Part shown: one piece after another, positions 2,339 to 37,359 of the stretch
How positions within the stretch are numbered: position 1 is the stretch's first letter
Layout: each line of letters begins with the position of its first letter
NCBI GenBank assembly: GCA_023920165.1
Contig: CP089274.1
Span: 1,736,001-1,800,000 of the forward strand
Source: Curvularia clavata
Taxonomy: Eukaryota
Direction of reading: 5' to 3'
DNA: 64,000 nt
Program-made: the position numbers and the translations under genes
Notes under the pieces: model-generated
Databases searched by the model: none
What the model was told of the DNA's origin: nothing
Seen by the model: only the letters and a program-made list of their open reading frames with translations

Positions 2339-4645
2339 TAGCGGGGTGACACGAAAACAGATTATAAGAAAAAATAGCATTTTTTACTTAGCTATATCTT
2401 AGCTGAAAAGATAGCTAAAAATACAAAAGTTGAAGATTTATATAAAGATTTACTAGCTCTTATGGTCTATAATTTAAGAAAAAAAGTTAGTAAGTATATA
2501 CCTCTTATAAAATAATGCTAAACTGGAGAGAAAAAAAACGTCAACTTCATACCTATTTTTCGCGCTTAGATTTCATAATTTATGTAGCTATTATTATATA
2601 GATATATACAGTGGGGTGACAAAAAGAAAGAGTATAAGAAAAAATAGCTATTTTCAAATAGCTATATCTTAGCTTATAAAATAGCTAATAATAAAAAATC
2701 TAAATTTTTATATAGAGATTTACTAGATTTTGAGATCTGATATTTTAAATACTGCTTAGTAAGCATATAGAATTTATAAAAAATACTAAAGTAGAGAGAA
2801 AATAAAATGACAACTTTAAGCTATCTTTTCGCGCTTGTTTTTTAGATTATGTATATTTATCTATATATAGATAGATACTACTAGTCTATATATAATATAT
2901 ATATAGCTTTAAGCTATATTTGTCTATCTATCTAATTAGCTATATAAGATTTTAAATTTTGGCACTAGCTTATATAAGCATTAGCTTAGTTAGCTATTAG
3001 TAATTAACTAGTATATAACTATAGCTTTCTATATCTAGCAACTTAAAACTATATTTTCTATATAACAGAGCCACAACTCTTAAATTTTAAACGCTAAATT
3101 AAAGCGTTTTTGGACGCTAATATATCTATAAAAAATATAAGTAATTACTTTTAAAAAAAAAATCTATAGTCTATATATAACGCTATAGATCAAATAAAAT
3201 AAAAATGTAAAGCTATTAGTTAGCTAAAAAGAGCTAGTTTAGATAGAATTTCTAAGACGACTGCTAGAGCTATAAGAGCTCTAAATAGAGATATACTATA
3301 TAGTCTTAACCAATCAAAAAATAGATTATTAAATAAAAATAATCTAGAAATATCTAGTAGAACTCTTTAAAGCGTTTTAAAAGTAGAGGGCTAGACTATA
3401 ATAACTAGTTAAAAAAAGCTAATTTTAAATTAGAAACAAGCAAAAAATGGCTACTCTACGCTAAAAATAAGCTTGAAAAGCTTACTAATACTAACGTTAG
3501 AAGAGTTATATTTTCTATTGAGTCTAGAATCTAGCGTAGATAGAGATCTTGAGCTGAATTTTCTTATAATAGGCTAAAATACTACTAAAATTTATAAATA
3601 TATGCTATTAAAAATATACGTACGTTTAGAAAGATTTTTAATAAGCTAAAATATACTTATATATATATTATATTTTATATATATCTATCTGACTACGCTA
3701 ATCTTTAGCCTGTGATATAACTATCCAAGTTTGGGGAGCTATTTGGATAGATGGCAGATCCAATCTAGTGGTTATTAAGACGCTAAAAAGCGTAGTTAAA
3801 TATCGAAATTACTACTATATCAGAAAATGTTTAATACTGTATATGAAACTGGATGTAAAACGCGGTAAGTTTTGCTATATATTTTTACTTATATTATAAC
3901 GGTGCGTAATGTACTATTATACTATATTGGTTATGTAATCTGTAGTCACGTGGGCTAGTAGTTATAAGCCCATCTCTTTTAGTAGTTAGAGATAGTTAGA
4001 TATCTTACAGATACTAGCACTTAAAACTCCAATCTTTCTCTCCTATTCCTCCTCTCAGTTGCCTGTCCACTCACTCCCATACCAACTCTACCGCTCACTG
4101 AGTAGAAACCGTAGTCTTGACTATCTACATCTTTATAATATATTGTTATATATATATATATATTTACATATATATATATATTTCTAACTAGTATAAAATA
4201 CTTTACTAACATATAGCTATCTAGTAGAAGCTAAAGACTAGTATGTAAATATTAGATAGTAATTTACTATTATCATCTTATATATTTACTAAGATATAAT
4301 ATATATCTAGATTTTCTGATTTAGATGGATAACTATAGCTATGATAAATATATAATATATATATATACTAAATGTAAATATCTATATGTAGATAGCTATA
4401 TAAGTCATGAAATCTAAGTGCGAAAAATACGTGTAAAGTTGACGTTTTCTTTTCTTTTTAGTTTAGCATTTTTTTTATAAGAGCTATATACTGCTTTAAT
4501 TCTTTTTAGAATTGGAAACTAAAAAACCTAGTAAATCTCTATATTAATCTCAAACCTTTATACTTTTAGCTATTTTATTGGCTGAGATATAGTTTAGTAA
4601 AAAATGCTGTTTTTCTTTGTAACCTTTTTATGTATCACGCTACTG
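2339..4645 (+). mobile_element. Degenerate long-TIR Tc1 element with two tandem left TIRs (2339 and 2609)
   Basis: (t)agcggggtgacacg at 2339, cagtggggtgac at 2609, right end ...tcacgctactg|TA at 4645. Stop-riddled transposase homologous to 11083-12414, with VWGAIW still readable at ~3728; most of exon 3 is deleted. Confidence 0.85.
3892..4140. mobile_element. Putative solo LTR inserted in intron 2 of the Tc1 copy
   Basis: ~250 bp, GC-richer and absent from sister Tc1 copies. Ends tattataac...ttataata restore to TGTTAC...GTAACA. No clear TSD. Confidence 0.5.
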
Positions 4646-5739: not shown

Positions 5740-5993
5740 CGTAAATACTATAACTACTATAGGATTCAAGCGCGAAAAGTTAGCCTTTATTTTGTTTTTT
5801 TCTTTACTTTACTCTAATAATTTACTATATTTTCTATATACTTACTAAAGTATATTTCAAATGCTAGATTAAAACTACTAACTAATCTCTATATAGAATA
5901 CTAATTTTTATATTTTTAGCTATCTTATTAGCTGAGTTATATTTAATCTAGATTACTATTTTTTGGATTACCTTTTTTTATGAACCCCTACTG
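5740..5993 (+). repeat. Orphan right TIR of Tc1 (CAGTGGGGGTTCAT family)
   Basis: Ends ...tatgaacccctactg|TA and aligns to ~9040-9287. Confidence 0.75.
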
Positions 5994-7193: not shown

Positions 7194-9287
7194 CAGTGGG
7201 GGTTCATTGAAAAAAAGTACTAAAAAAAGTAGTAGTTTTAGAACGATTATAACTCGGCCAATAAGATAGCTAAAAATATAGAAGATACTATTTTGTATAG
7301 GGATTAGTCAGCAGTTTTAATCTAGTATCTTAGATCGAGCTTAGTGAGCATATATAGAATACAATAAATTGTTGAAGTAGAGTAGAAAAAAAGTATAAAA
7401 TAAAATCTACGTTTTCGCGCTTGAATATTATAGTATTTATAGTTTTTAGTGTATATATATGATATATCTATATACATATATAATATATATTTCTTATAGC
7501 TATAGTTATCTATCTAAATACATAATTATATAAGATTGTAAATTTTAGCACTAGCTTACGTAACTAGTAGCTTAGTCAGCTATTTGTCAGCTTTTAGTAT
7601 ATATAGATAACTTTCAATCCTAACTAACTTAGATCTATATTTCCCCACCATGGATCCACATTTTTCAAAATTCGAACGTCAAATCAAAGCGTTTTTAGAC
7701 GCCCAAACACCAATTAAGAATATTATAAATTATTTTAAAAAAAAACCCACGATCTATTCATAACGCTATTTATCGAATTAAAAAAAAATTAAAATCTATT
7801 AGTCAGCAAGAAAGAGCTAGTATTGGCAGAATTCCAAAGGTGTCTTCTAGGGCTGAAAGAGCTATTAATAGAGATATTACTAGAAGCCCAAAAAAGACAA
7901 ATAAAAGATTATTACAAGAAAATAATCTAAATGTTTCTTTTAGTACACTTAAAAGAGTATTAAAAGAAGAAGGCTAGGTAATAAATATTTGTTCAAAAAA
8001 ACAGATACTAAACAAAGAAAAAGGTAAAAAAAGACTAGCTTATTGTAAAAAACAGCTAACTAATCTAAGTAAAATAGATTTTACTAAGATTATATTCTCG
8101 GACGAGTCTGGAATTGAGCGTGGGCGTAGATCTAGAGCTGAATTCTCTAGAAATCGCCCAAAAAAACGACAAAATCCAAAAATGTATTCTACAAAAAATA
8201 CAAGTACGTTTAAAAATATTTCTAATAAGCCAAAATATAGTAATATATATATATAACTATATATATCTATTATCTATTATATTTTATTTATCCAGCTGAC
8301 TAAGCCGATTTTTAGCCCATAATATAACTATCCATGTTTGGGGACCTATTTGGATAGGTGGAAGATCCGATCTAGTGGTTATAAAGACACCAAATAGTGT
8401 GATTAGTCATCGAAATCACCACTATATAAGAAAATGTCTAATACCCCATATAAAGCCAAAGTTAAAAGCTGGTAAGTTATATATATTATTTTACTCGTTA
8501 TTTATATATATAAATATTTCTAACTAGCTAGATATATTTTGCTAATATATATATATTTAGGCTTGCAATTTCAACAAGATAACGCTAAAATCCATAAAGC
8601 TAGAAACGTTCTAGACTGGTTTAGGCGCCATCATATTAAGATTTTTGAACATCCAGCGTATAGTCCGGATTTAAATCCAATAGAAAACGTATGGAGCTTT
8701 CTTAAAAATCAGCTTACTAAGCTGCAAGCTAGTAGTCTTGGCACGGGTAATAACCAGCAAAGTATTGATACTTTTATTAATACTATATTAGAAGAGTGGC
8801 ATAATATACCGCAAAAAGATATAGATAACTATATTTTATCTATACCAAAACGCTATAATAGAGTAGTAGAAGCTAAGGGCTAGTACACTAAATATTAGAT
8901 AATAATTTACAGTTATTATCTAATATATATACTAAAATATAACTTCTATATATATCTAATAACTTAGATAGACAACTATAGCTATGAAAAATATATATTA
9001 TATATATATATAGTTATAATATATATATATACTAAAAATAATAAATACTAAAATATTTAAGCGCGAAAAAACAGCTTTTATTTTGCTTTTTTTCTCAACT
9101 CTACTTTAACAATTTATTGTGTTCTATATATGCTGTCTAAGCTATACCTAAAATACTAGATTAAAACAGCTAACTAATCTCTACTCAAAACGGTATCTTT
9201 TATATTTTTAACTATTTTTCTAGTTGAGTTATAGTCGTTCTAAAACAACTACTTTTTTTAGTACTTTTTTTATATGAACCCCCACTG
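7194..9287 (+). mobile_element. Full-length Tc1 (DD34E) element with long TIRs; transposase disrupted
   Basis: TA|cagtgggggttcat...atgaacccccactg|TA. ATG at 7650; FSDES, VWGPIW, QQDNA and SPDLNPIENVW motifs; two introns. One extra A in the run at ~7737-7745 and TGG->TAG stops at ~7975 and 8881. Confidence 0.92.
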
Positions 9288-10625
9288 TAATATATGAAAT
9301 AAATATATTACATAGTATGAAAATAATTAGAACTTATTACTATCTGGATAGATTAATAGAGTATAAAGATATTGTTGAATTAAAATTTTATAAAAGGTTA
9401 TTAGATATATAAGAAATAGAAAATATATAGAAAATAATATTAATAGACTTATTGAACTAAAAACTGAATTTATAAAACTAGAATACGTATAAATAGCTAC
9501 TTGGCTTTGGTCTTTTATAGAATATTTTGTAAAGTATTTGATAAATCATATTTTAATTATTAAAATAATAGTTATAACTTCTCTTGCTCTATAAAGCTAG
9601 ATTAATATATATATTATGAACTTTCGCTCTTATAGTAGTTATATTGATATTCTCTATCTCTATATTCTTTATTTCCTCTACTTTTTTTGACTTTACTTAG
9701 ATAAAATATAGTATTATATGTATTTAAAACTAATTTAAATTATTTTAATAATAATCTATAAAGGTCTACTATTTAGATATTAGTATATAAGTAGTAATAC
9801 CTTTTTAAATATTAGCCATATTACTTTCTATCTATTCTATGATTTCTAAGCTATATAGTAGTCTAAACTATCTAATTAACTTTTAGCTAATCTTATATAC
9901 TTTTAGAACATTTTAGTCATTTGCTAAAGCTATATAATTATTATCTATTTTTCTTATTTAAATATCTTACATATTATAAGATTTTTAAAAAAATTTAAAA
10001 TAATCTACAGTAGTATTAAAAGAAGTAATATATTAGATCTGGATCAGTAGCTATTTATATAAGTCTATAGCTATTATAAAAGTGAGTAGTTTGAAATAAA
10101 TAAAAATATAGATTGAAGTAATATAGATATAACTATATATAGACTGAACTATACTCTAGTCTAGACGTTTATTGGGATCAAATTAAGAGCTAGGTTAGAT
10201 CTAATAATGACCCGTATCTAGATATAAGTATTAGATATCTTCTATAGATATTTAGTGGATTTTTAATATTCTTATATACTAGATTTATAAGTATCTACTA
10301 AATCTAAAGTATCTCTATTATTCTATTTATTTCTATATATATTAAGTAATATTTTCTATTAAAACTGATTTGACTGGTCTTACTCGTGCTATTATATTAT
10401 ATTAAAAATCTGTTTTAGCTAATAATCGTTCTTAAAAAAATAATATAGCTTATATATAAAAATATATTTGAGCCTAAGCTTTTCTAGAGCTACTTTAAAT
10501 ACTTTATACTATTATATTCTATACTTATATATAAGTAGAATCTTTCTGATTTTTATCACCTAAAGTTTGTAGATTTAGACTTTCTATACTAATTATAGTT
10601 AAATTGATTTTAGACAAGTTATATA

Positions 10626-12732
10626 CAGTGGGGTGACACGAAAAAAGATCACAAGGAAAAACAGCATTTTTCACTAGGCTATATCTTAGCTAATAAAATA
10701 GCTAAAAATATAAAAGCTTGAGATTTGTATAGAGAATTACCAGCTCTTCTAGTCTATAATCTAAAAAGAAGCTTAGTAAGTATATAGCTCTTAGAAAGAA
10801 ATGCTGAACTAGAGAGAAAAAAAAACGTCAACTTTGCACGTATTTTTCGCGCTGATATTTGTTATTTTATATAGCTATCTATATATAGATATATACTATT
10901 AGTATTTATATATAATATATATAGTTTTAAGCTATAGTTGTCTATCTAGTTAAATAGCTATATGAGATTTGAAATTTTGGCACTAGCTTACATAAGCACT
11001 AGCTTAGTCAGCTATTAGTAATCAACTAGTATATAACTATAGCTTTTCATTTCTAGCAACTTAAAACTGTATTCCCCACACAATGGAGCCACAACTGTCG
11101 AATTTCGAACGCCAAATCAAAGCGTTTTTAGACGCTAATACACCTATAAAAAATATAATAAATTACTTTCAAAAAAATCCACGGTCTATATATAACGCTA
11201 TAGCTCGAATAAAACGAAAATATAAAGCTATTAGTGAGCTAAAAAGAGCTAGTTTAGGCGGAATTTCTAAGACAACTTCTAGAGCAATAAGAGCTCTAAA
11301 TAGAGATATACTACGCAGTCCAAAAAAACCAAAAAATAGATTATTAAACGAAAATAATCTAGAAATATCTAGTAGAACTCTTCAAAGAGTTTTAAAAGCA
11401 GAGGGCTGGACTATAACAACTAGTCAAAAAAAGCCAATTTTAAACGAGAAAAAAGCTAAAAAACGCCTACTCTACGCTAAAAATAAGCTTAAAAAGCTTA
11501 GTAATATTAACTTTAAAAAAGTTATATTTTCTGACGAGTCTGGAATCCAGCGTGGATATGGATCTCGAGCCGAATTTTCTCGAAATAGGCCAAAATACCA
11601 CCAAAATCCAAAAATATACTGTACTAAAAATACAAGTACGTTTAAAAATATTTCTAATAAGCCAAAATATAGTAATATATATATGTAACTATATATATAT
11701 CTTATATTTTATATATCTAGCTGACTAAGCCAATTTTTAGCCCATGATATAACTATCCAAGTTTGGGGAGCTATTTGGATAGGTGGCAGATCCAATCTAG
11801 TGGTTATTAAGACGCCAAATAGCGTAGTAGAACATCGAAATCACCACTATACTAGAAAATGTCTAATACCATATATAAAACCGAATATAAAACGCGGTAA
11901 GTTCTGCTATATATTTTTACTTATATATATATATATATCTAAATATATAAATATATATATATAAGTCTAACTATACAGTTATAGTTAGCTAATCTATATC
12001 TATTTAGGCTGGAAATTCCAACAAGATAACGCAACAATCCATAAAGCTAGAAACGTTTTAGACTGGTTTAAGCGCCATAAAATTACACTTTTCGACCATC
12101 CAGCGTATAGCCCAGATCTAAATCCAATAGAAAACGTATGGAGCTTGCTTAAAAATCGGCTTACTAAGCTGCCAAGCTCTAGTCTTGGCACTGGCGCTAG
12201 TGAGACTAGTATAAATACGTTTATTACAGCTATTCACCAAGAGTGGCATAAAATACCACAAAAAGACATAGATAGCTGTATTTTATCTATGCCCAAACGC
12301 TATAATAGAGTAGTGGAAGCTAAGGGCTGGTATACAAAATATCAGATAGTAATTTACTATTATTATCTTATATATTTACTAAAATATAAGTTATATATAT
12401 ATCTTCTAATTTAGATAAATAACTATAGCTATAAAAAATATATATTATATATATACTAATAGTATATATCTATATATAGATAGCTATATAAATTGCAAGA
12501 TCGCAGCGCGAAAAATACGTGTAAAGTTGACGTTTTTTTTTCTCACTAGTTTAGCTTTGTTTTATAAGAGCTATTTACTTACTAAACTTTTTTTTAGATT
12601 ATAGACTAGAAGAGCTGGTAATTCTCTATACAAATCTTAAGCTTTTATATTTTTAGCTATTTTATTAGCTAAGATATAGCCTAGTGAAAAATGCTATTTT
12701 TCCTTGTGATCTTTTTTCGTGTCACCCCACTG
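10626..12732 (+). mobile_element. Full-length Tc1 (DD34E) transposon, ~325 bp TIRs, TA TSD
   Basis: TA|cagtggggtgacacgaaaaaagatcacaagg...ccttgtgatcttttttcgtgtcaccccactg|TA; the flanks rejoin as continuous Gypsy leader sequence. Confidence 0.96.
11083..12414 (+). CDS. Tc1-family transposase, 3 exons (11083-11635, 11741-11896, 12008-12414), ~371 aa
   Basis: GTACGT...CTGAC...TAG and GTAAGT...GCTAAT...TAG introns join the frames with no stop. Motifs VIFSDES, VWGAI, FQQDNA-(34 aa)-E in SPDLNPIENVW, GWYTKY. Confidence 0.88.
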
Positions 12733-15700
12733 TAAATTATACTAAAGTAGAGATTTAAAGACTACTAAGGATCTATTAGCTATAAAAATAACTATCAATA
12801 GTCAATTAAACTCTTTCTAGTTTAAAGACGTTTTCTAGAAAGTTACTACGCTTTTAAAATTTAGAGTTGAAAATAAAATATCTAGTAAACTACTGGCTAT
12901 TGAAGAGAAAAAGAATTTAGAAGAAAATAAGACTAGTTATCTTTAGAATAAGATTAATAGACTAAAAAGATAAATATCATAACGATTCTACTAAAATACT
13001 ATAGCTTTTAAATTTACTTTTTTTTTTCCTAAATTACTATTAACTATTATTAAACTAATTAAAATTCAATTTAGAGGATACTGATTAGTAATTCTAGATC
13101 TACTATATATCAAACTCATAAAATATACTCTTTTTATTGATAATTTTAGTAATAGAACTAAATCTATATTCTACTAATAGTAAATAGTTATAGAAAGCTA
13201 TTTAATGATTAATATAGACTATTATTAGAGTAAACACGTGTATATAGCTTTAGTTTGAAAATATACTATAAATATTAGTAAAAGATATCTAAAACTATAG
13301 TATCTAGCAAGTTTAATAAAAAACTAGTTCTAAGATCCTAAAAATATATACTGACTACTTTTACATTATATTTTATATCTAGTAATAAAACTATACTAAT
13401 TTCCACTACTTACTTATAGATGAAAAAAAACTTTTACTAAATCCAAAATACGATTTATAAATATTACCATTAACAAGATCTATAGTAAAATTAAGAGCAG
13501 TTTTTCTATTTATAGAGAATATTTATCTCTATTTTATATATTTTATATTCAGAATTTAAATACTAGGAGAATAATTTTCTAAATAAAATAATATAATATT
13601 TTACTTTTCTTAATTCTAAGTAAAAAAAGACTTTTTTTAGATAGAGTTTAGAACATATTTTTCAAAATATTTATACTTTACTAATAATAGTCTATATCAA
13701 TAAATACTAAGACTTTGATTAAAATACGTATAGAGATTAATTTAAACTACCTTTAATCTAATTTTATACTGATTTTAATACTTTTATCTTCTTATTAAAG
13801 ATATCTATACTAGATAATAAGCTATGTACTAGTAATTACTATAACTATAGAAAACTTAGATATTATATAAACGAGTACATTATTTTTGAGATTCAAGAAA
13901 TTCAAATAGAGAAAGAAAAATTTGAAAAAGTATATAAATATTTGATAGAAAAAGACTAGATGGAGAACTATTTAATTTAGAAAAACTCTCTATTTTAAGT
14001 ATAAATACATACTATCTAGTTAAAATTAATTTATTCTATTTATTTAGAACAAAACACTTTCTCGTCTCTACTATTCTTTATTTAATAGAGTTTAGTATTA
14101 GCTTATACTTTTTAATTAATACTAGAATTAAAAAACTTTTATCTTTAGATTTTACTATCATCTATACTTTTTTTAGCTTTTTCTAAATCTCTATCTAAGA
14201 TTTTGTTTTGAAAATTTTAGTCAAAAGATCATAGAATTAAGTCTTAACTAGATTAAATAACTTTATTTAGTTATATATTTAAATTAATAGAAGAAGGATT
14301 TATAATTATCTTTTTATAAGTATGAATACAAAAATATAAAACTACCTAATTAGAATTAAATAGTTAAAATATTTTTAGTCTAGATTTAATATAATCTAAA
14401 ACTAAGTTATATAGCAAACTAAGTATTTTCTGAAATATAGTTTTATACTTTCTATTCTTATATAATTAAGATAATTTTTAGTTAATACTGATATAGAATA
14501 GAATATATAGATAGAAGATATACTATAAAAAAAGAAAGACTATTAGAAATGAAAAAATTCTTATAAAGCTTTTATATTTGGCTTTAGCCCTTTATAGAAT
14601 ATGTTATTAAACATTTTATAGATTATATTTCAATATTCAAACTGATAATCATAGCACACCTAGCTCTATAAAGCTAGATTGATATATCATTAACTTTCTT
14701 CTTTATACAAACGATATTAATATTCTATATTTATATTTTTTCAACTTCTACTATCTCTAACTCTACTCTAATAAAATATAGTAACGTCTCTATCTAATAT
14801 TAACTCCTCTTAGACTAAAGTTTTATTTTAAATTTATACTACTTTTTAGTTAGTATCTAGACTATAATAGTCTATTAGATATTATTTATATTATTACAAA
14901 GCTAGTTATAAATAGTTTAACTATGCTATCTTTTTTAGATTTTCTAAATTGGGTTAAATCCAAATTTATATATTTAAAGAGCTTTGTAGCTATTAATAAA
15001 AGTAGCATAAGATATTAATATTTTATATAGTTAAATTTTATTGATCTAGTATTTTTTAGTAAAGTAGAGTAGTTTTTAGCTAATAGATAGCTAAGATATC
15101 TTAGCTAGTTAGAGAGCTATATCTAGAGATCTTAAAAAATATTAATATCTATCCTATCATAGAAGCTAAATATAGCGTTTAGTATAAGAACAACTATAAT
15201 CTTTTATTATCTAGATAGATTAATAGAGTATAATATCATAGTTAGATTATAATTTTAAAAAAGATTATTAGTTATATAAGAGATAGAAATTAGATAGAGA
15301 GTAATATTAATAGATTTACTAGGCTAAAAACTAAGTTTATAAGGGTAGAGTACTTATAAGTAGCTATAAGCTGTTCTGCTACTTTATACTACGTATTTTT
15401 ATTATAACTATAGTTCATTAAGTATAGATATTACTATCTATTATTAGATGTATAATTATATATAGACTAAAACATACTTCAGCTGGAGTAGCTTATTAAG
15501 ATCTGATTAAGAGCTAGATTAGACCTAATAAAGACCTATATCTAGATATAAATAGTAGATATCTTCTATAGATATTTAGTAGATTTTTAATATCTGCTTA
15601 TCAGAGATTTATAAATATTTATTAACTCTAAAATATTTCTATTATTCTATATATATCTATATATATTTGAATAATATTTTCTACTAGAACTAATTTAATT

Positions 15701-16463
15701 AGTTTTACTTATACTATTATATGATATTAAAAAATTTATTTTAGCTAGCAATAGCTTTTGAAATAATATTATAGTTTATGTATTAAGACTATATTCAAGT
15801 CTAAATCTTTTTAGAACTACTTTAGGTATGTTATATAATCATATTCTCTATTTATATATAAATAGAATCTTTTTAAATTTTCTACTGACCAAAACCTTTA
15901 AATTTAGATCTTTTATACTAATTATAGTTATATTAAATCTAGAGAAATTAGATATATTATACTAAAATAAGAATTTAGAAATTACTAAAAATGTATGAGC
16001 TATAAAAATAATTATAAATAGTTAACTAAATTCTATCCAGCTTAAAAAAGCTTTCTAGAAAGTTACTATATCTCTAAAATCTAAAGTTAACAGAGAAAAT
16101 ACTTAGTAAACTACTAGCTATTAAAAAAGAAAAAAATTTAGAAAAGAATAAAACTAGCTTTTTTTAAATAGTGATTAATAGACTGAATAAAAAATCCTAG
16201 AATTATTTTACTAAAATACTATAACTCTAGATTAATTTCATTTCTTCACTAAATTACTACTAACTATCACTAAATGACTAAAACTAAATTTAGAAAATCC
16301 TAGTTAGTAACTCTAGATCTACAATATATTAAACTTGTAGAGTATACTTTTTTTATTAATAATTTTAGTAATAGAATAAAATTTATATTCTACTAATAGT
16401 AAGTATTAATAGAAAACTACTTAATAATCAATATAGACTATTATTAAAGTAGATATATATATA

Positions 16464-16854
16464 TAGACTGGTAAATCGGGTATTTAGCTAGGGCTATCGA
16501 TTATCTTGGCCAATACTAGTCCAAATCAAGTAATTCTGGCGTCATTAGAGAGCTAGCACTCTAGTCTAAATATTACTAATATATTGTTTTAGCTTAACAC
16601 TAATAGTACTAGTGCTAGAGCTAAAAAAGGAGTAAAAATAGGGGTATACCCGACTCATAACCCAGCCCTAGGGCTCACAAACGGGCTATTAAATAACATT
16701 TGAACTAAGCTAGATACGGCTTAGCTTTATACTACATGATAGAATGCGCTAGCTTAGGGCATTAAAATGACGTCAGAATTACTCGATTTGGACTAGTCTT
16801 TGATGAGATATTGATGAAAGAAGAAAAGTGGGTCAATACCCGTTTACCAGTCTA
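16464..16854. mobile_element. MITE-like non-autonomous element (~390 bp), superfamily uncertain
   Basis: Terminal IR tagactggtaaatcgggtatt / aatacccgtttaccagtcta plus an inner IR actagtccaaatc...gcgtcatt / aatgacgtc...gatttggactagt. A partial second copy lies at 36568-36757. Confidence 0.8.
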
Positions 16855-29371: not shown

Positions 29372-29642
29372 TGTAACCATGCATAGACCAAAACATACCC
29401 CAGCCAGGGCAGCTTATCAAGATCCGATTGAGAGCCGGGTCAGACCCGATGAAGACCCGCACCCAGGTATAAGTACCAGGTACCTTCCATAGATGTTCGG
29501 TAGATTTTTGATATCCTTTCGTACCAGGCCTATGAGTGTCTACCGAATCCAAGGTGTTTCTGCTGTCCCACGCACTTCCATATGCATTTGAGTGACACTT
29601 CCCACCGGAACCGATTCGACTAGTCTTGCTCGCGCCGTTACA
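29372..29642 (+). repeat. 5' LTR
   Basis: tgtaac...gttaca; direct repeat of 36297-36567; TATAAG at ~29468. Confidence 0.97.
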
Positions 29643-29937
29643 TTATATCAAAAATCTCGTCCCAGCCGGTGACGGCCTTCAAAACAATATCGCAGCTTGT
29701 TTGTTGAGACCGCGCCCAAGCCCAAGTCCCTCCGGAACCGCTCCGGATACTTCACACCGTTACGTCCCATATTCACACATAGGCGGGATCCCTTCGATCT
29801 CCCGCCGACCGAAGCCTTTGGGTTTGGACCTCCTGTACTGATTGCAGTCAGGTTAACTTCGGAGAAGTCGCGTAGATTGCGCCAGGGTAGAGACTCGGAG
29901 ACTACCAAAAACCCATCAGCCACGAAGACAACCGTCG

Positions 29938-31128
29938 ATGGCTGACCTAACCCCATCCGGCTCAGGAGAGCTTTCCAGGAAGTCGCCGCGCTTCCAAGAT
30001 TCGAAGTCAAGAGAGAAGACGCCTGGCAAACCGCCAGCCGTCGAAGAGGAAGAGGATTCGGAAGAGGATGAGACTAGCCTCCTTCGGGCAGAGATCGACA
30101 GGCTAAACGAACAAATCGCACGGCTGTCCCGCCAAAACACCGCAGCCCCAGATCAACCTCTCCCCTCCACCGAATCACCACCGACTATCGCTGAACCAAC
30201 CGAAACTCAATTCGGAAGGTACCAGTCAGCAACCCCGGACCTGCTACGTGTCAAACTCACAGAACGTACCCCTTCCATTGATAACCTTAGTGATGGAACA
30301 GAACCTACGTTCCGCCAATGGCAAGCGTCAATAGAGGACCGCTTAACAATCAATGCGGACCATTATCGGAGTGAACGCGCACGCATGGCTCTAGTCTGGG
30401 GACATACTACAGGTATCGCCAAGGGATACCTGGAACCACAGTACCTAGCCGATTCGGTGGAGGACCGGTTCCAAAACGCCGAAGATATGATAGCTACTCT
30501 AAAATCATACTTCGTATCCGGCAACGAGCAAGCGGAAAGCCGCGCTGCTTTCCACCGCTTGCTCATGGACAAAAAGGAAACCTTCGCTGAATTTAAGGCA
30601 AAATTTATAAGTGCTGCTGTCAAAGGATCCGTATCGAAGTCGGAGTGGTTTTTCTACTTATGGGAAAAAATTACCCCCGCCTTGCGTGTTCCAAACTTGG
30701 GATTTAAACACCAGTGGAACAACTCCTTTGACAAGATGATACAACACCTTACTGCCTTCGATACCGAAAGAAGGAACACTCCTTTCGGACACGGTTCGGA
30801 ACCCACTTCCAATAATTCTCGTACTCCACCAACGAAGCCCCGCGTCAGTCAATACCGGGACTACCGCCCAAACACTTATGGAGTCCGATCCGAACCAGCT
30901 CCGACCCAATCTCGCGCTCATTCTAATACCCCCAGGTTCCCTTCAAAGACCCCCGCACCGGATAGCAAACCGACTACTAGTAATTGCTATAACTGCGGAA
31001 AACCTGGACATTATGCGAATGAGTGCCCCATTCCTCGGGTTCGAGAAATCGAAGCAGAGAAGGAAGAATTCGAAGAAGCACACGAATACTTATCGGAAGA
31101 GGACCGGGCGGGAAACCACCAGGCCTAG
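29938..31128 (+). CDS. gag: Gag (396 aa) with CCHC zinc knuckle
   Basis: Open ORF containing CYNCGKPGHYANEC. Confidence 0.95.
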   Translation: MADLTPSGSGELSRKSPRFQDSKSREKTPGKPPAVEEEEDSEEDETSLLRAEIDRLNEQIARLSRQNTAAPDQPLPSTESPPTIAEPTETQFGRYQSATPDLLRVKLTERTPSIDNLSDGTEPTFRQWQASIEDRLTINADHYRSERARMALVWGHTTGIAKGYLEPQYLADSVEDRFQNAEDMIATLKSYFVSGNEQAESRAAFHRLLMDKKETFAEFKAKFISAAVKGSVSKSEWFFYLWEKITPALRVPNLGFKHQWNNSFDKMIQHLTAFDTERRNTPFGHGSEPTSNNSRTPPTKPRVSQYRDYRPNTYGVRSEPAPTQSRAHSNTPRFPSKTPAPDSKPTTSNCYNCGKPGHYANECPIPRVREIEAEKEEFEEAHEYLSEEDRAGNHQA

Positions 31129-34100
31129 GAAAACTCTCCGCCCTAGGCATGAACAAGTATGATCTAGCTAAAATTGATTTATCCCACTTGTTCGGAGGAA
31201 AACACTTCCTAGTCCCCACCGTTCTTTGTTCGAAAGGCTTTGGCGTCAGCTTGCATTCCTTAGTTGACACCGGAGCCCAAGGTTTTTTATTCTTAAATTC
31301 TGCTATTGCTCGTACCCTTTCCGGCTCTCTTCAGGTCCCCATCCGAAGACTTCCTTTCAAGATCACAGTCAAAGGATTTCAGGACCAAGTCCAAACTAGG
31401 ATAGACAAATATATTCGGTTACATATCCGAATCGATGGAAGAAAGATTTACAACTGTCCCTTCGTGATCATGGATCTAGGGACACAGGACTGCATAATCG
31501 GAATCAAGTGGTTAAGACGTTTCCAGCTTAGGCTTGATACGAGCCGGAACCGAATCGTATGGCCAGCCAAGTACCCTCCAACATATGATCCTGCGCCCCC
31601 TATTCTTGTACAGTTGAAACAATCTTCCGTCGATGCTGATGTGGAACGGGACATACAGAGGCGAGACGCACTATGGGAAAAGGACAACTACCGGAGGCAA
31701 AACAGTCCTCGCAAAGCTCTTATACGAAGAATTAGAGAATGCCTCAAACTTCCCAAGGTTCGTCTACCACCACCTGTTCCCGACCCTACTCCGGACCCTA
31801 TCCGACCAACATCTTCACCCCGTATCGCCATCATTTCGGCAAATGCTTTCCATTATTCTATGAAGCGTAAGGAAAACGAGTTCTTCACGACAAGTATCTA
31901 TGAGATCGATCGCATCTTAGAAGAGCGCATGAAGCCAGACGATCCCGAAAACGCCAAACTTGTTCGGGACCGACTTCCATCCGCTTACCATTCGTACCGC
32001 GATGTCTTCAGCAAGACAGCGGCAGAGCTACTGCCCGAACATCGCCCATACGATCATAAGATTGTGCTGACCGAACCTCTTCCGAATCAATTCAGTCCTC
32101 TGTACAAGCAGAGCACTGAAGAACTCGAAGCCACCAAGACGTTCGTAATGGAAAACCTTAGGAAAGGACACATTGACCCAAGCCACTGCCCCTTCGCCTC
32201 CCCAGTCCTTTGTGTTCGGAAGCCAAACGGAGACATTCGCATCTGTGTAGATTACCGCCGACTCAACGCAATCACCAGAAAGGATGCGTATCCGATACCG
32301 CGCATTGACGAGCTTCTAGCCCGCACCCACAAGGCGAAAATCTTCACCAAGCTCGACATACGTGCGGCATTCAACAAGATCCGAATGCACCCCGACTCGG
32401 AGGAGTACACCACGTTCCGCACTAGATACGGAACCTACAAGTCCAAAGTGCTGCCTTTTGGATTATGCAACGGCCCTGCAACATATCAACGCTACATGAA
32501 TGATGTGTTGATTGATTATCTAGACAGCTTCTGCATAGTCTACCTAGACGACATTTTGATCTACTCCGAATCGGAACCGGACCACCCCCGCCACGTACAA
32601 CAGGTCTTGGAAAGGCTTAGGCAAGCCGGTCTTCAAGTTGACATCAAGAAAAGCGAATTCCATGTCACTCGGACCAAATACCTAGGGTACATTTTGACCA
32701 ACCAAGGTCTAGAGGTGGACCCTGACAAGGTGGAAGCCCTTCAAGATTGGGTCCGACCTACCACCGTTACTGGTGTGAAGTCGTTCCTAGGGTTCACTGG
32801 GTTCTACAGGCAGTTCGTTCCTGAATACTCGCGAATTGCGAAACCTCTCCTCGCCCTCCAGAGCCCCTCAAGACCATTCGTATGGGATTCGGAGTGCGAC
32901 CAAGCCTTTGAAAGGTTAAAATCTGCACTGCTGGCAATTCCCACCTTGTACCACTACCATCCAGAGTATGATACCAAGGTGGAGACCGACGCGTCCGATG
33001 GCGTTGTGGCAGGCGTTCTTTCCCAAAAGCAGCCAAATGGAAATTGGTGTCCTGTAGCATTCTTCAGCAAGGTCCTATCCGGGTCTGAGCTGAACTGGGA
33101 AATACACGACAAAGAACTATTCGCCATTGTAACGGCGTTTAGCAAGTGGCGACCGGAGCTACTATCAATACGCTCTCGTGTCGATGTGTACTCAGACCAC
33201 CGTTCCCTCGAATACTTTATGACTACCAAAGTCCTGAATGCCCGCCAAGTGCGATGGGCGGAAGAATTGGCATCCTTTAATTTCCACATCCGATACACCC
33301 CTGGAAAGGATAATGCTCGTGCTGACATCCTCTCCCGACGAGAGCAAGATGTGGGGAATCTGAAGACAGCCCAAATCGACAACCGTTCGCGGGTCCTCCT
33401 GGGACCGCACCGACTCGATAACCGAATTAACTCCGAACTTGCTAAGACCTATGTAGCCCAACTCCAAGCGGAATCTTTCTTTTTACTTGTAGTTGAGCCT
33501 ATATCGGAGCCGATGTCCCTCGATTTGCTGGAGCTGATCGAGTCTATTCTATAAGAGAACCGAGCCTTGTTTGGGGCAGAGCGAAGGTCCCTTCTGGACA
33601 GATACCGGATCGAAAACGGACTCCTGCTCTATTCCAACCGCCTATGCATTCCTTCTACTTCTACCCTTGTGACTCGCCTTATTCGGGAAGTACACGACCA
33701 GGTATCCTCAGCGCACCCTAGTGCGAAGAAGACCTACCAACTACTGTCCCAGAAGTACTACTGGAAGGGTATGGAATCCACCTGTAAAAGGTATGTGCGG
33801 AATTGCATAGCCTGTAGGAAGGCCTATCCTAGACAGACCCGAATTCTAGGGATGATTCATCTTTTGCCAATTCCTGACCGGCCGATGCAGCACCTGTGTA
33901 TCGACTTTAAGGAATTTCCCCGAGACCGATCCGGTTACGACATGATTATGGTCGTGATCGACCGGTTATCTAAGCAGGCCATCTCCATCCCCTGCCATAA
34001 GACTATTGATGCAAGGGGAATGGCCGACCTATTCGTGTAATGGGTGTACCGATTTGGCCACACACCTGAAACTATAGTCTCTGACCGAGGACCATAGTTT

Positions 34101-35045
34101 ATTTCAAGCTTCTGGTCGGAATTCTGCCGAATCCTAGGCGTTAAGGTTAAGCTGTCAACCGCCTACTATAAAGAAACGGATGGTCAGACAGAGATTATGA
34201 ATAAGTACATCGATTAGAGGTTGCGCCCATTCGTATCCTACTACCAAGACAACTGGAGTGGACTTCTACCTTTGATCGATCGTGCTTAAATTTCCCTACC
34301 ACATTCTTCTATTGGTACGTCCCCGTACCACATCCTATATGGTTCCGAACCCCGGCAGAGTTGGGACTGGAAACATTCCACCAGCCCTCTCACCCCCACT
34401 GACAAACTCAACTATAAGGATGCATTGGAAATGGCTACCCGTATGTACGACGCATGGAAGGTGGCTAAGGAACAAATGGAGAAAGCCCAGGATAGGATGC
34501 GAACTACAGTCAACCGCCATCGCCGTTCTGTTGATTGGGATGTTGGAGATATGGTCTTCCTAAGTACCCGGAACCTCGCGTCAGACCGTCCGAGCAGGAA
34601 GCTATCCTCCAAATGGGAGGGGCCCTTCAGGGTACTTGAGAAGGTAGGACATTTATACTGCTTGGACCTTCCGAAAGGGTCCCGGATCTATGATGTCTTC
34701 GCCCCGGATCTGTTATGCAAAGATTCTTAAGACCCCCTCCTAGGATAAGAATCTCTAAGGCCCCTAGCAACTCCCATCCAAGGCGTGGAAGAATGGGAGG
34801 TAGAAGAAATCCTAGTAAGTAAGTTGTACCGCTCAAATCTAAAATACTAAGTACGGTGGGTCGGATATGACCCGGATCCTACCTGGTACCTAGTCTCAAA
34901 CTTTATGGGAGCCCCACACAAGCTCAAACTCTTCCATGAACAACATCCCACCAAACCGGGACCCCCACGTTCCCTTGGCAAGTGGATCACGGCATGGGAA
35001 TAAGGTACAGAGGATATGACTTCACTGTAGGATGACAAAATTTAA
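31110..35045 (+). pseudogene. pol: Pol (protease, RT, RNase H, integrase, chromodomain) in the -1 frame; open to 33554, then nonsense codons
   Basis: LVDTGA, YLDD, TDAS/DKEL/DHRSL, HHCC finger, SDRG, chromodomain WEVEEIL...VRWVGY. Stops at 33552, 34038, 34095, 34215, 34287 and later. The 3' end is approximate. Confidence 0.95.
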
Positions 35046-35143
35046 AGAAAAGGAAAAATAGAAACTTTATTGGGTATCAGTAATAAAGGAAACTCGGACC
35101 CGAACCCCACAACCACCAACAAACCCCCAAAATGTCACCTCAC

Positions 35144-35811
35144 TCAAAGTTCAACATCAGAGCGCTCCTGCTTAGCGTCGGCCATCTCCTGGCCAACCGC
35201 ACCCTTGTCCTCCTCAGAGGAGGAGGACAAACTAGACCATTCCTCCGACTCCTCGACCCGAGGGCCGACCCGGGCGCCACCCCGAGCCGACCTGGCCTCA
35301 AGACGCGAAAGGCGCCTTTCTATGCCATTGACTGTATCGACCAACTCCAAGATGCTGTCTCGGATGTCCCTCAGGACCTGGTTCTGGGCGACGAGGAGCT
35401 GATTGACTGAAAGCTCCTTCTCCTGGGACCTGACAACTTGGACCTTGCGGGCGATGTCCAAAGCGGCGGCAGCGATTCGATCAAGCAATACCTCCGTATC
35501 GGCATCAACTGCAGGGCCATACCGAGCGATGGCACACAACTCGATGGCATCGATTAAATCGTGAAACTCCTCGAAGACGTACTCGGGAACCTATCCGGGT
35601 TAGCCAAGCTGCAAATAGTGAAGGAAAAGAGAAGCAAACTTATAGGATCGCACTTCTCCTTCTGCTGGGTGCAATAAAGACACTTCTTGGAGGAATCGGA
35701 CGGGTAGGCGTAAGCAATGTCGAACTGACGGCGCGCCAAGGCGCGGACAGCTCGCAGATAGATGAAGCGATACGCATCTGGCAGCGCACCGGGCGGACAA
35801 CGAAGAGGCAT
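35144..35811 (-). CDS. Antisense accessory gene of the Gypsy element, 2 exons (35811-35644, 35590-35144), ~204 aa; splice donor mutated in this copy
   Basis: ATG at 35811; 53-nt intron (A)TAAGT...GCTAAC...TAG joins two ORFs in phase; CLYCTQQKEKC motif followed by a helical/coiled-coil region and an acidic tail. Confidence 0.75.
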
Positions 35812-36296
35812 AGCGAAAACGAGTGCGTTGAGTTGTAACTGACTTGTTTTGATTGAGAAGCGTGGAGGAGAAAACTCGGCGGCGACACTGTGTTGTTGTT
35901 GATATACACACTGGGGGAGCAAACAGTCTTGGCACACGTGACCTGGATAGCCGTTGGACCCTGACTACAAACGAATCGCCGGCGACTCGGGGCTCCGATC
36001 GAAGCGTCCAGGCCTGTCTGGCAGGTGAAGGCAAACGGCCTAGCGGCTAGGCAGCAAGGCAGCAGCGCCACGTGAGTACCGGAATGGTCACTGAGGCTCA
36101 GGCACAGAGGCTTAAGTGAAGGACATGCACGGCCACGGGAGCTACACCGGAACCGGAGCATCCTATTGCCCGGAGTGGCGCAGTGTGGGGAAAATCTGGG
36201 GGAAATCAGGAACGAGGGACTCTATGGTGCAGGGAAGAAGAATGACAACCGGAATAGACAGCTGTGGGACCAGCTGTCTACCGGGAGGGGGGGTAA

Positions 36297-36567
36297 TGTA
36301 ACCATGCATAGACTAAAATATACCCCAGCTAGGGCAGCTTATCAAGATCCGATTGAGAGCCGGGTCAGACCCGATGAAGACCCGCACCTAGGTATAAGTA
36401 CCAGGTACCTTCCATAGATGTTCGGTAGATTTTTGATATCCTTTCGTACCAGGCCTATGAGTGTCTACCGAATCCAAGGTGTTTCTGCTGTCCCACGCAC
36501 TTCCATATGCATTTGAGTGACACTTCCCACCGGAACCGATTCGACTAGTCTTGCTCGCGCCGTTACA
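36297..36567 (+). repeat. 3' LTR
   Basis: Differs from the 5' LTR at four visible sites (36314, 36319, 36330, 36389), all CpA->TpA. Confidence 0.97.
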
Positions 36568-37359
36568 TCGGGTATACCCCTATTTTTACTCCTTTTTTAG
36601 CTCTAGCACCAGTATTATTAGTGTTAAGCTAAAATAATATATTAGTAATATTTAGACTAGAGTGCTAGCTCTCTAATGACGTCAGAATTACTTGATTTGG
36701 ACTAGTATTGGCCAAGATAATCGATAGCCCTAGCTAAATACCCGATTTACCAGTCTAGTGTAGACACTACATTAATTACCGCGATAGATAGCCGCCTAGG
36801 AGGCGTAGACACTATATAACGCGCGCGAGATTAAGGCTTAAATTAGTCTTATTTAATAGAGCGTGAGAAATTGCTATAAGTCTTCTACTAATTTACTTAC
36901 TAAGTAGATCGCATAGTTGAGTAAAAGGGCTTAGCAAATAGTATATAAGATAGTGCTTCTAATAGAGAAAATTACTACTCTTTAAGCAGCTCTTAATAAG
37001 TTAAATAAATATAAGAGCTATAAGCAGCGATACGTATAGATAGAAGAGACTCTTACTATAGGCAAAGTATAAGAAGTATTAGCTAAATAGGCGGGTAGTA
37101 GTCGTGGCGACGGTAAGAGTGCGTTGAAGAGGGTGCGAGGAGAGAGGCGGTGCGGGCGTTATAAGCAGACTGGATATAACGCTTATATCTATACAGTTAA
37201 AATAGATAGTATAAATAATAGCAGCGATTCTAATAATTAAATTAATATATTATAATAGTTTATTAACTGTGATAAAAGACCGTAATAACGTGTCGACGTC
37301 GGCGCGCTGGTGGGGCGTGAGCCGCTCGGTTGGGTGAGCCGCTCGCTTGTGAACCACGT
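36568..37359 (+). mobile_element. Half MITE (36568-36757) fused to a pogo 3' fragment and right TIR (36758-37359)
   Basis: 36568-36757 is the reverse complement of 16464-16653; the rest matches ~22427-23029. Confidence 0.9.

Follow-up and report, generated by a model that had tools for sequence, protein, structure and literature searches.

The Tc1-like element found at positions 10626-12732 of the window (the whole stretch of 64,000 nt of the Curvularia clavata contig CP089274.1 that was analysed) is probably a structurally complete and young DD34E copy, belonging to a clade whose RIP footprint has been filtered by purifying selection. This element, named hereafter the focal copy, was compared with two sister copies of the window, with the surrounding Gypsy remains, with metagenome relatives and with ordinary fungal Tc1 transposases.

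Structure and insertion site of the element

The focal copy is a complete Tc1-like (DD34E) transposon of 2107 bp with CAGTGGGG...CCCCACTG at its ends (Table 1). Its two arms carry 25 mismatches over 300 nt, of which just 9 are transitions, and the outermost 36 nt of both arms are identical by eye; the near-perfect inverted ends reported by the first-pass annotation are therefore those of the tips and not of the whole arms. A 112-nt unitig of the DNA run X1 across 12623-12734 (right arm and TA) matched without any difference at a depth of 2161. The tip CAGTGGGGTGACA is kept in relatives as CAGTAGGGTGACA / CAGAGGGGTGACA, and the tips are common to the focal copy and the relatives L004, L006 and L007. 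A regular-expression search of the relatives for CAGTG-type tips gave none; their tips, obtained by repeat search and reading of the ends, are CAGTAGGG / CAGAGGGG. When a second internal transposase-binding site was sought in the arm, no direct repeat of the terminal sequence was detected within 10626-10930 (seed 7). Sleeping Beauty has an IR/DR layout with a second internal binding site per arm, and 300-nt arms devoid of an internal copy of the terminal site do not correspond to that layout. The block TTTTCGCGCT is unchanged in all three window copies, has a mirror image near 12505-12515 and might act as a binding site inside the arm or as a promoter element.

Table 1. Features of the focal copy and of its surroundings (positions in the window).
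Feature	Position	Strand	Basis
TA target-site duplication, left copy	10624..10625		flank letters and paralogous Gypsy without insertion
Left terminal inverted repeat, 300 nt, tip CAGTGGGGTGACA	10626..10925	+	arms 92% complementary
CG-rich block TTTTCGCGCT within left arm	10844..10853	+	invariant alignment columns 219-228, surroundings diverged
Leader, presumed promoter region, arm to ATG	10926..11082	+	position between left arm and start
Exon 1: DNA-binding region with HTH of paired type; D151, the first Asp of the triad	11083..11635	+	PF01498 match, alignments
Intron 1, 105 nt, GTACGT..TAG	11636..11740	+	frame model; X16 contig joins 11635 to 11741
Exon 2	11741..11896	+	frame model and X16 contig
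Intron 2, 111 nt, GTAAGT..TAG	11897..12007	+	frame model; X16 contig joins 11895 to 12007
Exon 3 core, D243 and E278 (DD34E), to canonical ...GWYTKY	12008..12342	+	DDE_3, Sleeping Beauty alignment
CAG replacing the family stop, then 23-codon Ile/Tyr/Leu-rich tail and TAG	12343..12414	+	comparison with sisters and relatives
Right terminal inverted repeat	12433..12732	-	arm complementarity; X1 unitig without differences
TA target-site duplication, right copy	12733..12734		flank letters
Host Gypsy gag/pol remains	12875..14471	+	37 stops
Paralogous RIPed Gypsy stretch with uninterrupted (empty) target site	15451..16466	+	comparison with flanks of the insertion
Sister A (sisA), heavily RIPed copy, exon-3 region replaced	2609..4645	+	alignment of window copies
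Sister B (sisB), diverged sub-lineage member	7194..9287	+	76% identity, many transversions

In the paralogous Gypsy, both flanks of the insertion meet with a 2-nt overlap at 15953-15954. The focal copy would thus have inserted at a TA inside a Gypsy element that had already been degraded by RIP. As previously described from the sequence, the host Gypsy is destroyed and CAA, CAG and TGG codons of the sisters have become stops: 24 in-frame stops were counted in sisA, among them CAA>TAA (six times), CAG>TAG (twice) and TGG>TAG (three times), and sisB contains TGG>TAG twice plus one extra base. The focal copy has been free of RIP since its split from sister A, with 8 RIP-direction changes on its branch versus 70 in sisA, 41 of the latter in CpA context.

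The transposase gene

Once the two introns are removed, the frame is open for 371 codons from the ATG at 11083 to the TAG at 12412-12414 and encodes 2 Met, 8 Trp (TGG) and 13 Gln (11 CAA and 2 CAG). Chance alone would leave 371 codons open with a probability of 1.6e-13 at the composition of the focal copy, and open runs reached at most 121 codons in 2000 shuffles. The catalytic triad is formed by D151, D243 and E278, with 34 residues between the second Asp and the Glu, and is supported by alignments with P0041 and SB100X. Exon 1 matches PF01498 (HTH_Tnp_Tc3_2; 33.0 bits for a cut-off of 31.5), an HTH family also present on the atlas neighbours of the transposase, and exon 3 matches PF13358 (DDE_3; 1.5e-13). 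In addition, exon 3 aligns with Sleeping Beauty (5cr4; 4.6e-12) up to the last Sleeping Beauty residue. Intron 1 occupies the same position in relatives of the focal copy. In a 507-nt contig of run X16, which is labelled with the same species, both introns are absent and the joints fall on the borders predicted; at the second joint the cut may equally be set one base rightward (+1). No intron-less joint was found in the DNA runs X1 and X2. The first-pass annotation of a spliced frame of about 371 codons with its DD34E, Trp and Gln codons and GT..AG splice sites preserved is thus borne out, as is its mention of only two Met.

Copy number, transcripts and the C-terminal tail

X1 unitigs lying on the element displayed 0-2 differences at depths of 835-2161 whereas zero-difference contigs of the flanks had depths of 113-119; in X2, the depth was 516 on the element versus 55.5 on the flank. 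X2 gave no cover at 12802-13049. The focal copy is therefore about 1% away from unitigs 9-19 times deeper than its own unique flanks. This suggests that the family multiplied recently in a burst, the summed contig depth being not equal to a copy number. Loose ends at 10621 and 12737 continue into other flanks. The joint 10625|12733 of an empty allele was not among the X1 and X2 joints listed, and contigs cannot show absence. The share of words of the element was 0.25-0.52 in runs X3-X15, which carry other organism codes and include metagenomes of air and roots, and smaller in X16-X20, with 13 organism labels represented in this word search; contigs of X1, X2, X6 and X16 were aligned to the element. 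The near-identical copies for which a search had been proposed are hence present in two DNA runs.

The X16 transcript contigs, of which the RNA label is a guess, are about 97% identical to the focal copy. One of them is missing a base at 11337, a loss that would end the frame at codon 88, and the spliced contig thus appears to derive from a frameshifted copy about 3% different and not from the focal copy. A multi-copy, near-identical family together with a spliced transcript makes recent mobility plausible. The transposase used in this recent burst would have been provided by the focal copy or by a near-identical one.

At 12343-12345 the focal copy reads CAG where both sisters read TAG, in agreement with the first-pass annotation, and the frame gains 23 codons. 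Because the stop directly follows (T/N)KY in all 12 relatives whose sequence covers the C-terminus, the tail results from a derived stop loss and is not ancestral; the frame running past the canonical ...TKY is a trait of the copy and not of the family. The tail is hydrophobic, is present in no relative and may impair the enzyme. There is accordingly an appreciable chance, short of an even one, that the focal copy is non-autonomous, the tail and four residue differences from the high-depth majority (L53P, C180S, E215K and T222I) inactivating a protein whose burst would have been driven in trans. Transposase supplied in trans readily moves Tc1 elements, and Sleeping Beauty terminates at the TKY where the 12 relatives without tail also stop. 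Against this reading, an X2 unitig of depth 516 spans 12260-12363 with one difference, at an unspecified position, so that the form with the tail may be the one present in many copies.

RIP footprint in the focal copy

The focal copy has a GC content of 29.5%, a TpA/ApT index of 1.32 (1.05-1.35 in its exons) and a (CpA+TpG)/(ApC+GpT) index of 0.80, confirming the strong AT and TpA richness noted earlier. For the GC block, these indices are 0.77 and 1.20. The usual thresholds are 0.89 and 1.03, and both indices of the focal copy fall on the RIP-affected side. The footprint was compared with 8 host or Gypsy ORFs and 32 metagenome relatives, and the Met content with 24 ordinary Tc1 transposases. 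At synonymous third positions, C is found in 7/81 cases when A follows and in 44/100 when any other base follows (p=6e-8). With G as the next base, C remains frequent (16/26, 62%), so that neither AT bias alone nor deamination of CpG accounts for the depletion before A. The opposite is observed in the 8 host or Gypsy ORFs, in which C makes up 50-93% before A. The comparison of synonymous RIP targets put forward by the first-pass annotation thus came out in favour of RIP.

Two observations do not follow this pattern. The TpG half is flat (NTG 5/30 versus 27/126, p=0.8), and the noncoding parts of the focal copy are no poorer in CpA than the exons, with (CpA+TpG)/(ApC+GpT) values of 0.74-0.86 in the arms and 0.94 in the leader, the flanks being at 0.42-0.50. 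The noncoding parts count against a RIP footprint because neutral sites should show RIP best. The coding sequence nevertheless bears an old, context-specific RIP footprint, which predates the split from sister A and is common to relatives sharing just 39-62% protein identity.

Among the CpA-context sites left in the focal copy, 12 are synonymous, 50 missense and 20 stop-making, the amino-acid-changing share of the remaining CpA/TpG being 70/82. The Trp, Gln, His and Cys counts lie inside the range of the 24 ordinary Tc1 transposases and Met alone is low (2 in the focal copy and 1 in L001 and L004, for 5-12 in the ordinary transposases). P0124, an ordinary Tc1 as AT-coded as the focal copy, retains 7 Met. 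The focal copy is not RIP-proof, since its sisters were killed at exactly its stop-prone codons. The earlier proposal that the element passed through RIP under purifying selection, lost its dispensable RIP targets and became hardened consequently requires amendment: the passage is supported for the lineage and not for the copy itself, which shows few changes since the split; synonymous C before A is indeed depleted while the sites listed above remain; and the hardening is only partial. A loss of RIP targets describes two of the relatives, L001 and L004, far better than the focal copy.

Metagenome relatives and purifying selection

The closest relatives were found only in metagenome or Logan sequences, in singleton clusters. 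In all 32 relatives with the same introns, C before A amounts to 0-3 of 23-96 (p<0.05 in 30/32), and Leu/Val NTG codons are absent in 27/32 relatives, in which the other G-ending codons reach about 1/5 to 1/3; the RIP footprint is thus stronger in these relatives than in the focal copy. Despite an extreme RIP-like composition, the matched parts of 8/32 relatives contain no stop. L001 and L004 possess complete 348-aa frames and the introns of the focal copy. Full-length counts were made with L001 and L004, which are complete, and L009, which is open to the contig end; L007 and L013 were left out, the intron-1 model being out of frame in L007 and no in-frame solution for intron 1 being obtained in L013. 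Over their whole coding sequence, L001 and L004 retain 34-36 C/G in CpA context, of which 0-2 are synonymous, and they encode 19 M+W+Q+H+C residues versus 33-60 (median 48) in the 24 ordinary Tc1 transposases. The clade carries another residue at 5 of the 9 columns where ordinary Tc1 conserve Trp, and the conserved Met before VWG is replaced by Q, S or K. Stop-making codons persist in every clade member counted (13-20).

Purifying selection acts between the lineages of the clade: dN/dS is 0.28 between the focal copy and sisB and 0.24-0.34 between the lineages of the relatives, versus 0.80 when the RIPed sisA is used. The dN/dS comparison proposed earlier thus gives about 0.3 between sub-lineages. 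Taken together, the footprint, the relatives and these dN/dS values indicate that the lineage lived through RIP under purifying selection.

The following explanation is considered probable. The elements form a distinct fungal Tc1 clade of about 2.1 kb whose inverted ends are long and whose 348-aa transposase gene has two introns conserved throughout, and their coding sequences carry a deep RIP footprint (CpA>TpA, TpG>TpA) passed through purifying selection. Synonymous RIP sites are close to exhausted and Met has almost disappeared, the frame, the triad and the splice sites being kept. If RIP episodes, i.e. sexual cycles, are rare, copies with only harmless changes could re-amplify between them, and the lineage would survive because of this. 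The purge of targets would be mainly a by-product of the filter, lowering only modestly the risk in the next round of RIP.

It is unlikely that the same purge represents an adaptation, in which the clade would have been selected to shed RIP-vulnerable codons and autonomous copies would survive RIP cycles much more often. The codons vulnerable in that reading are those for Met, Trp, Gln, His and Cys and all synonymous CpA/TpG. The near absence of synonymous targets and the low M+W+Q+H+C content of L001 and L004, the substitutions at the conserved Trp and Met columns and the stop-free relatives all agree with it. However, mutation plus filtering would passively yield the same pattern, the stop-making codons that killed sisA and sisB are left in every member, the focal copy stays within the ordinary range with the exception of Met, and the residue differences may just mark an old clade. 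Moreover, RIP recognises homology and not CpA content.

It is very improbable that the element is a natively AT-rich transposon of which the composition mimics RIP in the absence of any RIP history. The low GC is indeed old and family-wide, the focal copy has undergone no recent RIP, and the arms and leader are just mildly CpA-poor. This explanation is contradicted by a depletion specific to C before A with C before G maintained, by the loss of NTG in relatives that keep other G-ending codons, by the TpA/ApT index of the exons, and by the loss of Met, which AT bias spares, as seen in P0124. Finally, the idea of a transposase gene that has been domesticated, or of a dead relic whose frame is open by accident, has nothing in its favour beyond the open frame and is refuted by the anatomy of the element (intact arms, TA duplication, multi-copy depth, other insertion flanks) and by the negligible probability of such a frame.

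Comparison with known systems

Like Sleeping Beauty SB100X (PDB 5cr4) of the IS630-Tc1-mariner superfamily, the element combines a TA duplication, terminal inverted repeats, an N-terminal paired-type HTH and a DDE domain with a 34-residue spacing, and its ...TKY aligns to the last Sleeping Beauty residue. It differs by its two spliceosomal introns, its 23-aa stop-loss tail and its coding sequence of 30-35% GC with a RIP-type context bias. With the 24 full-length ordinary fungal Tc1 transposases it shares about 25-36% identity in exon 1, the domain order, the FSDE, QQDNA and SPDLNPIE motifs and a size of about 340-360 aa; the Met and M+W+Q+H+C contents set the clade apart (1-2 Met, and 19 such residues in L001 and L004). 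Named fungal elements include impala and Crawler. RIP relics such as sister A and the Gypsy flanks display the same high TpA/ApT and low (CpA+TpG)/(ApC+GpT), but they contain stops at CAA, CAG and TGG (24 in sisA, 37 in Gypsy) and the focal copy has none.

In the parts of the reports available here, crapaud/grenouille in Podospora (PMC10787394) and small DNA elements in a lichen fungus (10.1101/2024.12.24.630239) are said to escape RIP, the routes given being timing (vegetative bursts), small size and divergence (PMC10787394, 10.1101/2024.12.24.630239); horizontal transfer is included among the routes of persistence (PMC10787394, 10.1101/2025.06.16.659975). As in these accounts, copies re-expand here in a RIP-proficient genome, and our data, too, are most simply read as a burst that took place between sexual cycles. 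The same portions of text mention no coding sequence saturated with harmless RIP changes yet open (PMC10787394, 10.1101/2024.12.24.630239), and the focal copy, at 2.1 kb, is far above the size limit given for size-based escape. RIP leakage is described as shaping functional genes beside repeats, namely avirulence effectors of Leptosphaeria maculans (PMC2973834, as far as the part available goes), where RIP-type mutation plus selection likewise leaves a functional coding sequence. Such an effector is a single-copy bystander, whereas here a multi-copy transposon, the very target of RIP, stays functional. A bipartite RIPed genome is also described, in the part of the report available, for the cosmopolitan fungus Paecilomyces variotii (PMC6300479). 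A literature search of titles and abstract starts did not retrieve any transposon lineage that is intact and at the same time saturated with synonymous RIP mutations.

Significance

The focal copy, an autonomous-looking element of 2.1 kb, and the 32 relatives, coming from unrelated samples, show a transposase gene to be able to take up the RIP spectrum at all neutral sites while remaining under purifying selection. In the usual description, RIP leads transposons irreversibly to their death. We propose only tentatively, and with more doubt than confidence, that the clade is mutationally robust to RIP, repeated RIP and selection having removed every harmless CpA/TpG and replaced many Met, Trp, His, Gln and Cys, some of them at positions conserved in ordinary Tc1 transposases, and that the focal copy is live, expressed and the product of a very recent re-expansion. 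If so, autonomous copies would keep their frame open through a RIP episode and could re-invade the AT-rich graveyards left behind by RIP. Should the loss of codons measurably raise survival of RIP, it would constitute a transposon counter-adaptation against a genome defence that works by mutation. Composite indices class such elements as RIPed, and routine annotation would discard them as dead even though these may be the copies that are active; the focal copy suggests how transposons persist in genomes with RIP.

An intact Tc1-like copy in degraded Gypsy DNA

The sequence features attributed to the element by the first-pass annotation (its ends, frame, introns, DD34E triad and destroyed host Gypsy) were all present in the sequence, and the located features are collected in the following table.

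Features located in the window
Feature	Position	Description
Tc1-like element (intact copy)	10626-12732	starts CAGTGGGG, finishes CCCCACTG; TA at each side
Introns of its transposase gene, both GT..AG	11636-11740 and 11897-12007	splicing out gives ATG 11083 to TAG 12412
CG-rich block TTTTCGCGCT	10844-10853 and about 12505-12515	one per arm
Sister A	2609-4645	82% identical to intact copy
Low-complexity sequence in sister A	3898-4222	unrelated; in place of exon-3 region
Extra arm piece	5834-5941	108 nt
Sister B	7194-9287	76% identical to intact copy
Gypsy retrotransposon, apparently undamaged	29372-36568	GC 50%; adjoins RIPed block

The transposase frame of the intact copy contains 371 codons, among them 2 Met, 8 TGG and 13 Gln codons. 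The probability of 371 open codons arising by chance at the base composition of the element was 1.6e-13, and open runs in 2000 shuffles reached at most 121 codons. Exon 1 matched the Tc1/Tc3 HTH family and exon 3 the DDE_3 family, the alignment of exon 3 with the Sleeping Beauty catalytic domain extending to the last residue of that protein. The catalytic triad consists of D151, D243 and E278, with 34 residues between D243 and E278. The inverted arms (300 nt each) are 92% complementary, and since only 9 of their 25 mismatches are transitions, they have not been driven apart by RIP, the fungal repeat-mutating defence (CpA>TpA/TpG>TpA). The CG-rich block of the arms is invariant in the three window copies amid diverged surroundings and might act as an inner binding site or as part of a promoter.

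The caveat that CAG replaces TAG, adding a 23-residue tail, was borne out. A TAG or TAA immediately follows (T/N)KY in the 12 of 12 relatives covering the C-terminus, both sisters read TAG, and this is also the C-terminal end of ordinary Tc1 proteins and of Sleeping Beauty. The stop was therefore lost by a derived T>C change, giving CAG at 12343, and the added residues are rich in Ile, Tyr and Leu.

Gypsy gag/pol remains with 37 stops were found in the right flank. The left 500 bases of flank align with 15451-15954 and the right 515 bases with 15953-16466 of a paralogous RIPed Gypsy copy, in which the two flanks are contiguous with a 2-base overlap corresponding to the duplicated TA. The insertion is thereby proven, and it took place in Gypsy DNA degraded beforehand.

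The window itself is bipartite. Bases 1-28500 have a GC content of 25% and strong RIP indices (TpA/ApT 1.42, (CpA+TpG)/(ApC+GpT) 0.49), while from 29000 onward GC is about 51% and the same indices are 0.77 and 1.20. The GC-normal part encodes ordinary eukaryotic genes (an ATG4-type peptidase, CLP1-like and Mto1/centrosomin-like proteins), and the window is that of a fungal genome with AT-rich blocks made by RIP. In the apparently undamaged Gypsy, gag (423 aa) and pol (843 aa; RT, RNase H) are open and the LTR pieces are 98-98.5% identical, suggesting that RIP has not acted since its insertion. Together with the intact Tc1 copy, this neighbour suggests a lineage without a RIP episode since these bursts.

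RIP history of the three copies

Sister A is a victim of RIP. C>T/G>A changes on its own branch number 70 (41 in CpA context), compared with 30 transitions in the opposite direction, and sister A has 24 in-frame stops, including CAA>TAA (six), CAG>TAG (two) and TGG>TAG (three). Sister B differs from the intact copy mostly by transversions and carries only two stops, both TGG>TAG, and one extra base. With a dN/dS of 0.28 against the intact copy, it is a member of a diverged sub-lineage which evolved under selection until recently.

On the own branch of the intact copy, only 8 changes are in the RIP direction. There are 30 sites at which it retains C or G and both sisters carry T or A; CpA is enriched among them (13/30 versus a background of 104/489), as parallel RIP of the sisters would predict. 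The intact copy has therefore not been RIPed since its split from sister A. The proposal that this lineage went through RIP thus holds as an older footprint, and not for the intact copy since that split.

Intron 1 stands out by its similarity between copies: the intact copy and sister B are identical at 99 of 105 positions, compared with 75% identity in exon 1 and 64% in the arms. Its first 31 nt recur unchanged in one metagenome relative (L013) and with a single difference in another (L002), the exon 1 protein being only about 50% identical. In several relatives, translation of exon 1 past its end into intron 1 yields a comparable short peptide. The conservation could stem from gene conversion, from an element that controls splicing, or from a product of intron retention (the DNA-binding domain alone).

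A RIP-type footprint in the intact gene

The use of third-position C versus T before A was taken as a measure of CpA>TpA at neutral sites, since every NNC/NNT codon pair is synonymous. In the intact gene, C was found at 7 of 81 such positions (9%), compared with 44 of 100 (44%) before C, G or T (p=6e-8), which is the CpA depletion at synonymous sites that had been put forward as a check. The eight host and Gypsy ORFs of the window show the reverse trend (50-93% C before A). When all C and G of the gene were considered, 12 of 83 in CpA context were synonymous versus 83 of 287 in other contexts. The mirror TpG test was flat in the intact copy, Leu/Val codons ending TG (versus NTA) amounting to 5/30 and other G-ending codons to 27/126. 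TpA/ApT is 1.05-1.35 within exons too. The bias is RIP-type and context-specific; general AT bias or CpG decay is disfavoured as its cause by the specificity for C before A, third-position C before G reaching 16/26. As the own branch of the intact copy shows hardly any RIP-direction change, the footprint is older than this copy.

Relatives and the loss of RIP targets

Exon 1 was searched against 1.84 billion representatives, with only 4 matches at E<=1e-30 (best 58, 52, 44 and 47% identical). These are Lys/Asn/Ile-rich ORFs of about 200 aa continuing into intron 1, and their clusters are singletons from metagenome or Logan assemblies. A metagenome scan yielded 32 loci with 39-62% identity. Their GC is 0.20-0.30 in 25 and up to 0.33-0.53 in the other seven, TpA/ApT is 1.3-1.9 in most, and the CpA index is 0.06-0.66 in 27 of 32. 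Loci with enough sequence share the three-exon layout, with GTAAGT/GTACGT introns at matching places. Long arms were seen in L004 (265 nt), L006 (154 nt) and L007 (119 nt), with tips TA followed by CAGTAGGGTGACA or CAGAGGGGTGACA. One locus, L011, is a RIP-like element within GC-normal DNA, the usual setting reversed (GC 0.24 in the matched part of exon 1, 53% in the locus overall).

Third-position C before A occurs at 0-3 of 23-96 positions in all 32 loci (p<0.05 in 30), and 27 loci have no Leu/Val codon ending TG, other G-ending codons being at about 1/5 to 1/3. The matched parts are without stop in 8 of 32 loci, L001 and L004 encode complete 348-aa proteins ending GWYTKY, and dN/dS between the relatives' sub-lineages is 0.24-0.34, a result which, like that of sister B, answers the suggested dN/dS comparison.

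CpA-context C/G in coding sequences and residue counts
Source	CpA-context C/G	Synonymous/missense/stop-making	Met	M+W+Q+H+C
L001	36	2/20/14	1	19
L004	34	0/21/13	1	19
Intact copy	82	12/50/20	2	35
24 ordinary full-length Tc1 (protein only)			5-12	33-60 (median 48)

One ordinary Tc1 transposase, P0124, is as rich in Phe/Tyr/Ile/Asn/Lys as the clade and yet has 7 Met. Trp is conserved at 9 columns of ordinary Tc1 proteins, 5 of which have another residue in the clade, and the Met preceding their VWG motif is replaced by Q, S or K. These residue counts and column changes indicate that the clade shed RIP-vulnerable codons, more so than the intact copy did. The proposed loss of dispensable RIP targets thus applies to the clade (2 and 0 synonymous sites in L001 and L004) and only in part to the intact copy, which retains 12 synonymous and 20 stop-making sites. 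As judged from sequence, this loss may be no more than a scar of repeated filtering; an adaptation increasing survival through RIP is the less likely explanation. No clade member is RIP-proof: 13-20 stop-making codons persist, and the sisters were killed at exactly such codons.

Copies and transcripts in public runs

Runs under 13 organism labels contain words of the element, as do metagenomes of air and roots. Contigs of four runs were compared with 9826-13532: X1 and X2 (DNA runs of organism A), X6, and X16, which shares the species label and is an RNA run by guess only. Because zero-difference flank contigs enter the element at both ends (up to 10647; from 12708), X1 and X2 both carry the insertion at 10626-12732. 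Flank contigs have a depth of 113-119 (X1) and 55.5 (X2), and unitigs with 0-2 differences within the element 835-2161 (X1) and 516 (X2), that is 9-19 times the flanks. For a single-genome run this ratio suggests of the order of ten near-identical copies, depth itself not being a copy number. Loose contig ends at 10621 and 12737 continue into different flanking sequence, marking other insertion sites.

One contig each of X1 and X2 carries a joint, 10713|12642, between the left arm (its outermost ~88 nt) and the right arm (its outermost ~90 nt); it skips 1928 nt at about single-copy depth. The joined sequence resembles a MITE-like deletion product at another genomic site, unless the inverted repeat made the assembly fold back on itself.

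In X16, a 507-nt contig spans 11536-11635, 11741-11895 and 12007-12258, both introns being absent with borders exactly as predicted; no intron-less joint was found in the DNA runs X1 and X2. The family thus appears to be transcribed and correctly spliced, but with only about 97% identity between the X16 contigs and the intact copy, this transcript is not that of the copy at 10626-12732. One of these contigs lacks the base at 11337, giving a frame stop at codon 88, and the transcript may stem from a defective copy. Among the differences listed, 12/23 (X16) and 13/22 (X6) are synonymous, above the neutral expectation.

Near-identical words also occur in X3-X15 (12 further organism labels and air/root metagenomes), and X6 has contigs 96-100% identical to the element with different flanks. 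This wide occurrence could result from horizontal transfer, from closely related organisms or from the presence of one ubiquitous fungus in many samples.

Persistence under RIP

Transposon persistence under RIP has been discussed in terms of timing, size, divergence and horizontal transfer (PMC10787394; 10.1101/2025.06.16.659975), and in the portions of this literature reached by a limited search no description of such a pattern was found. The best-supported account, which we consider probable, is that of a young, un-RIPed and structurally complete copy, belonging to a Tc1 clade with an old, selection-filtered RIP footprint in its genes.
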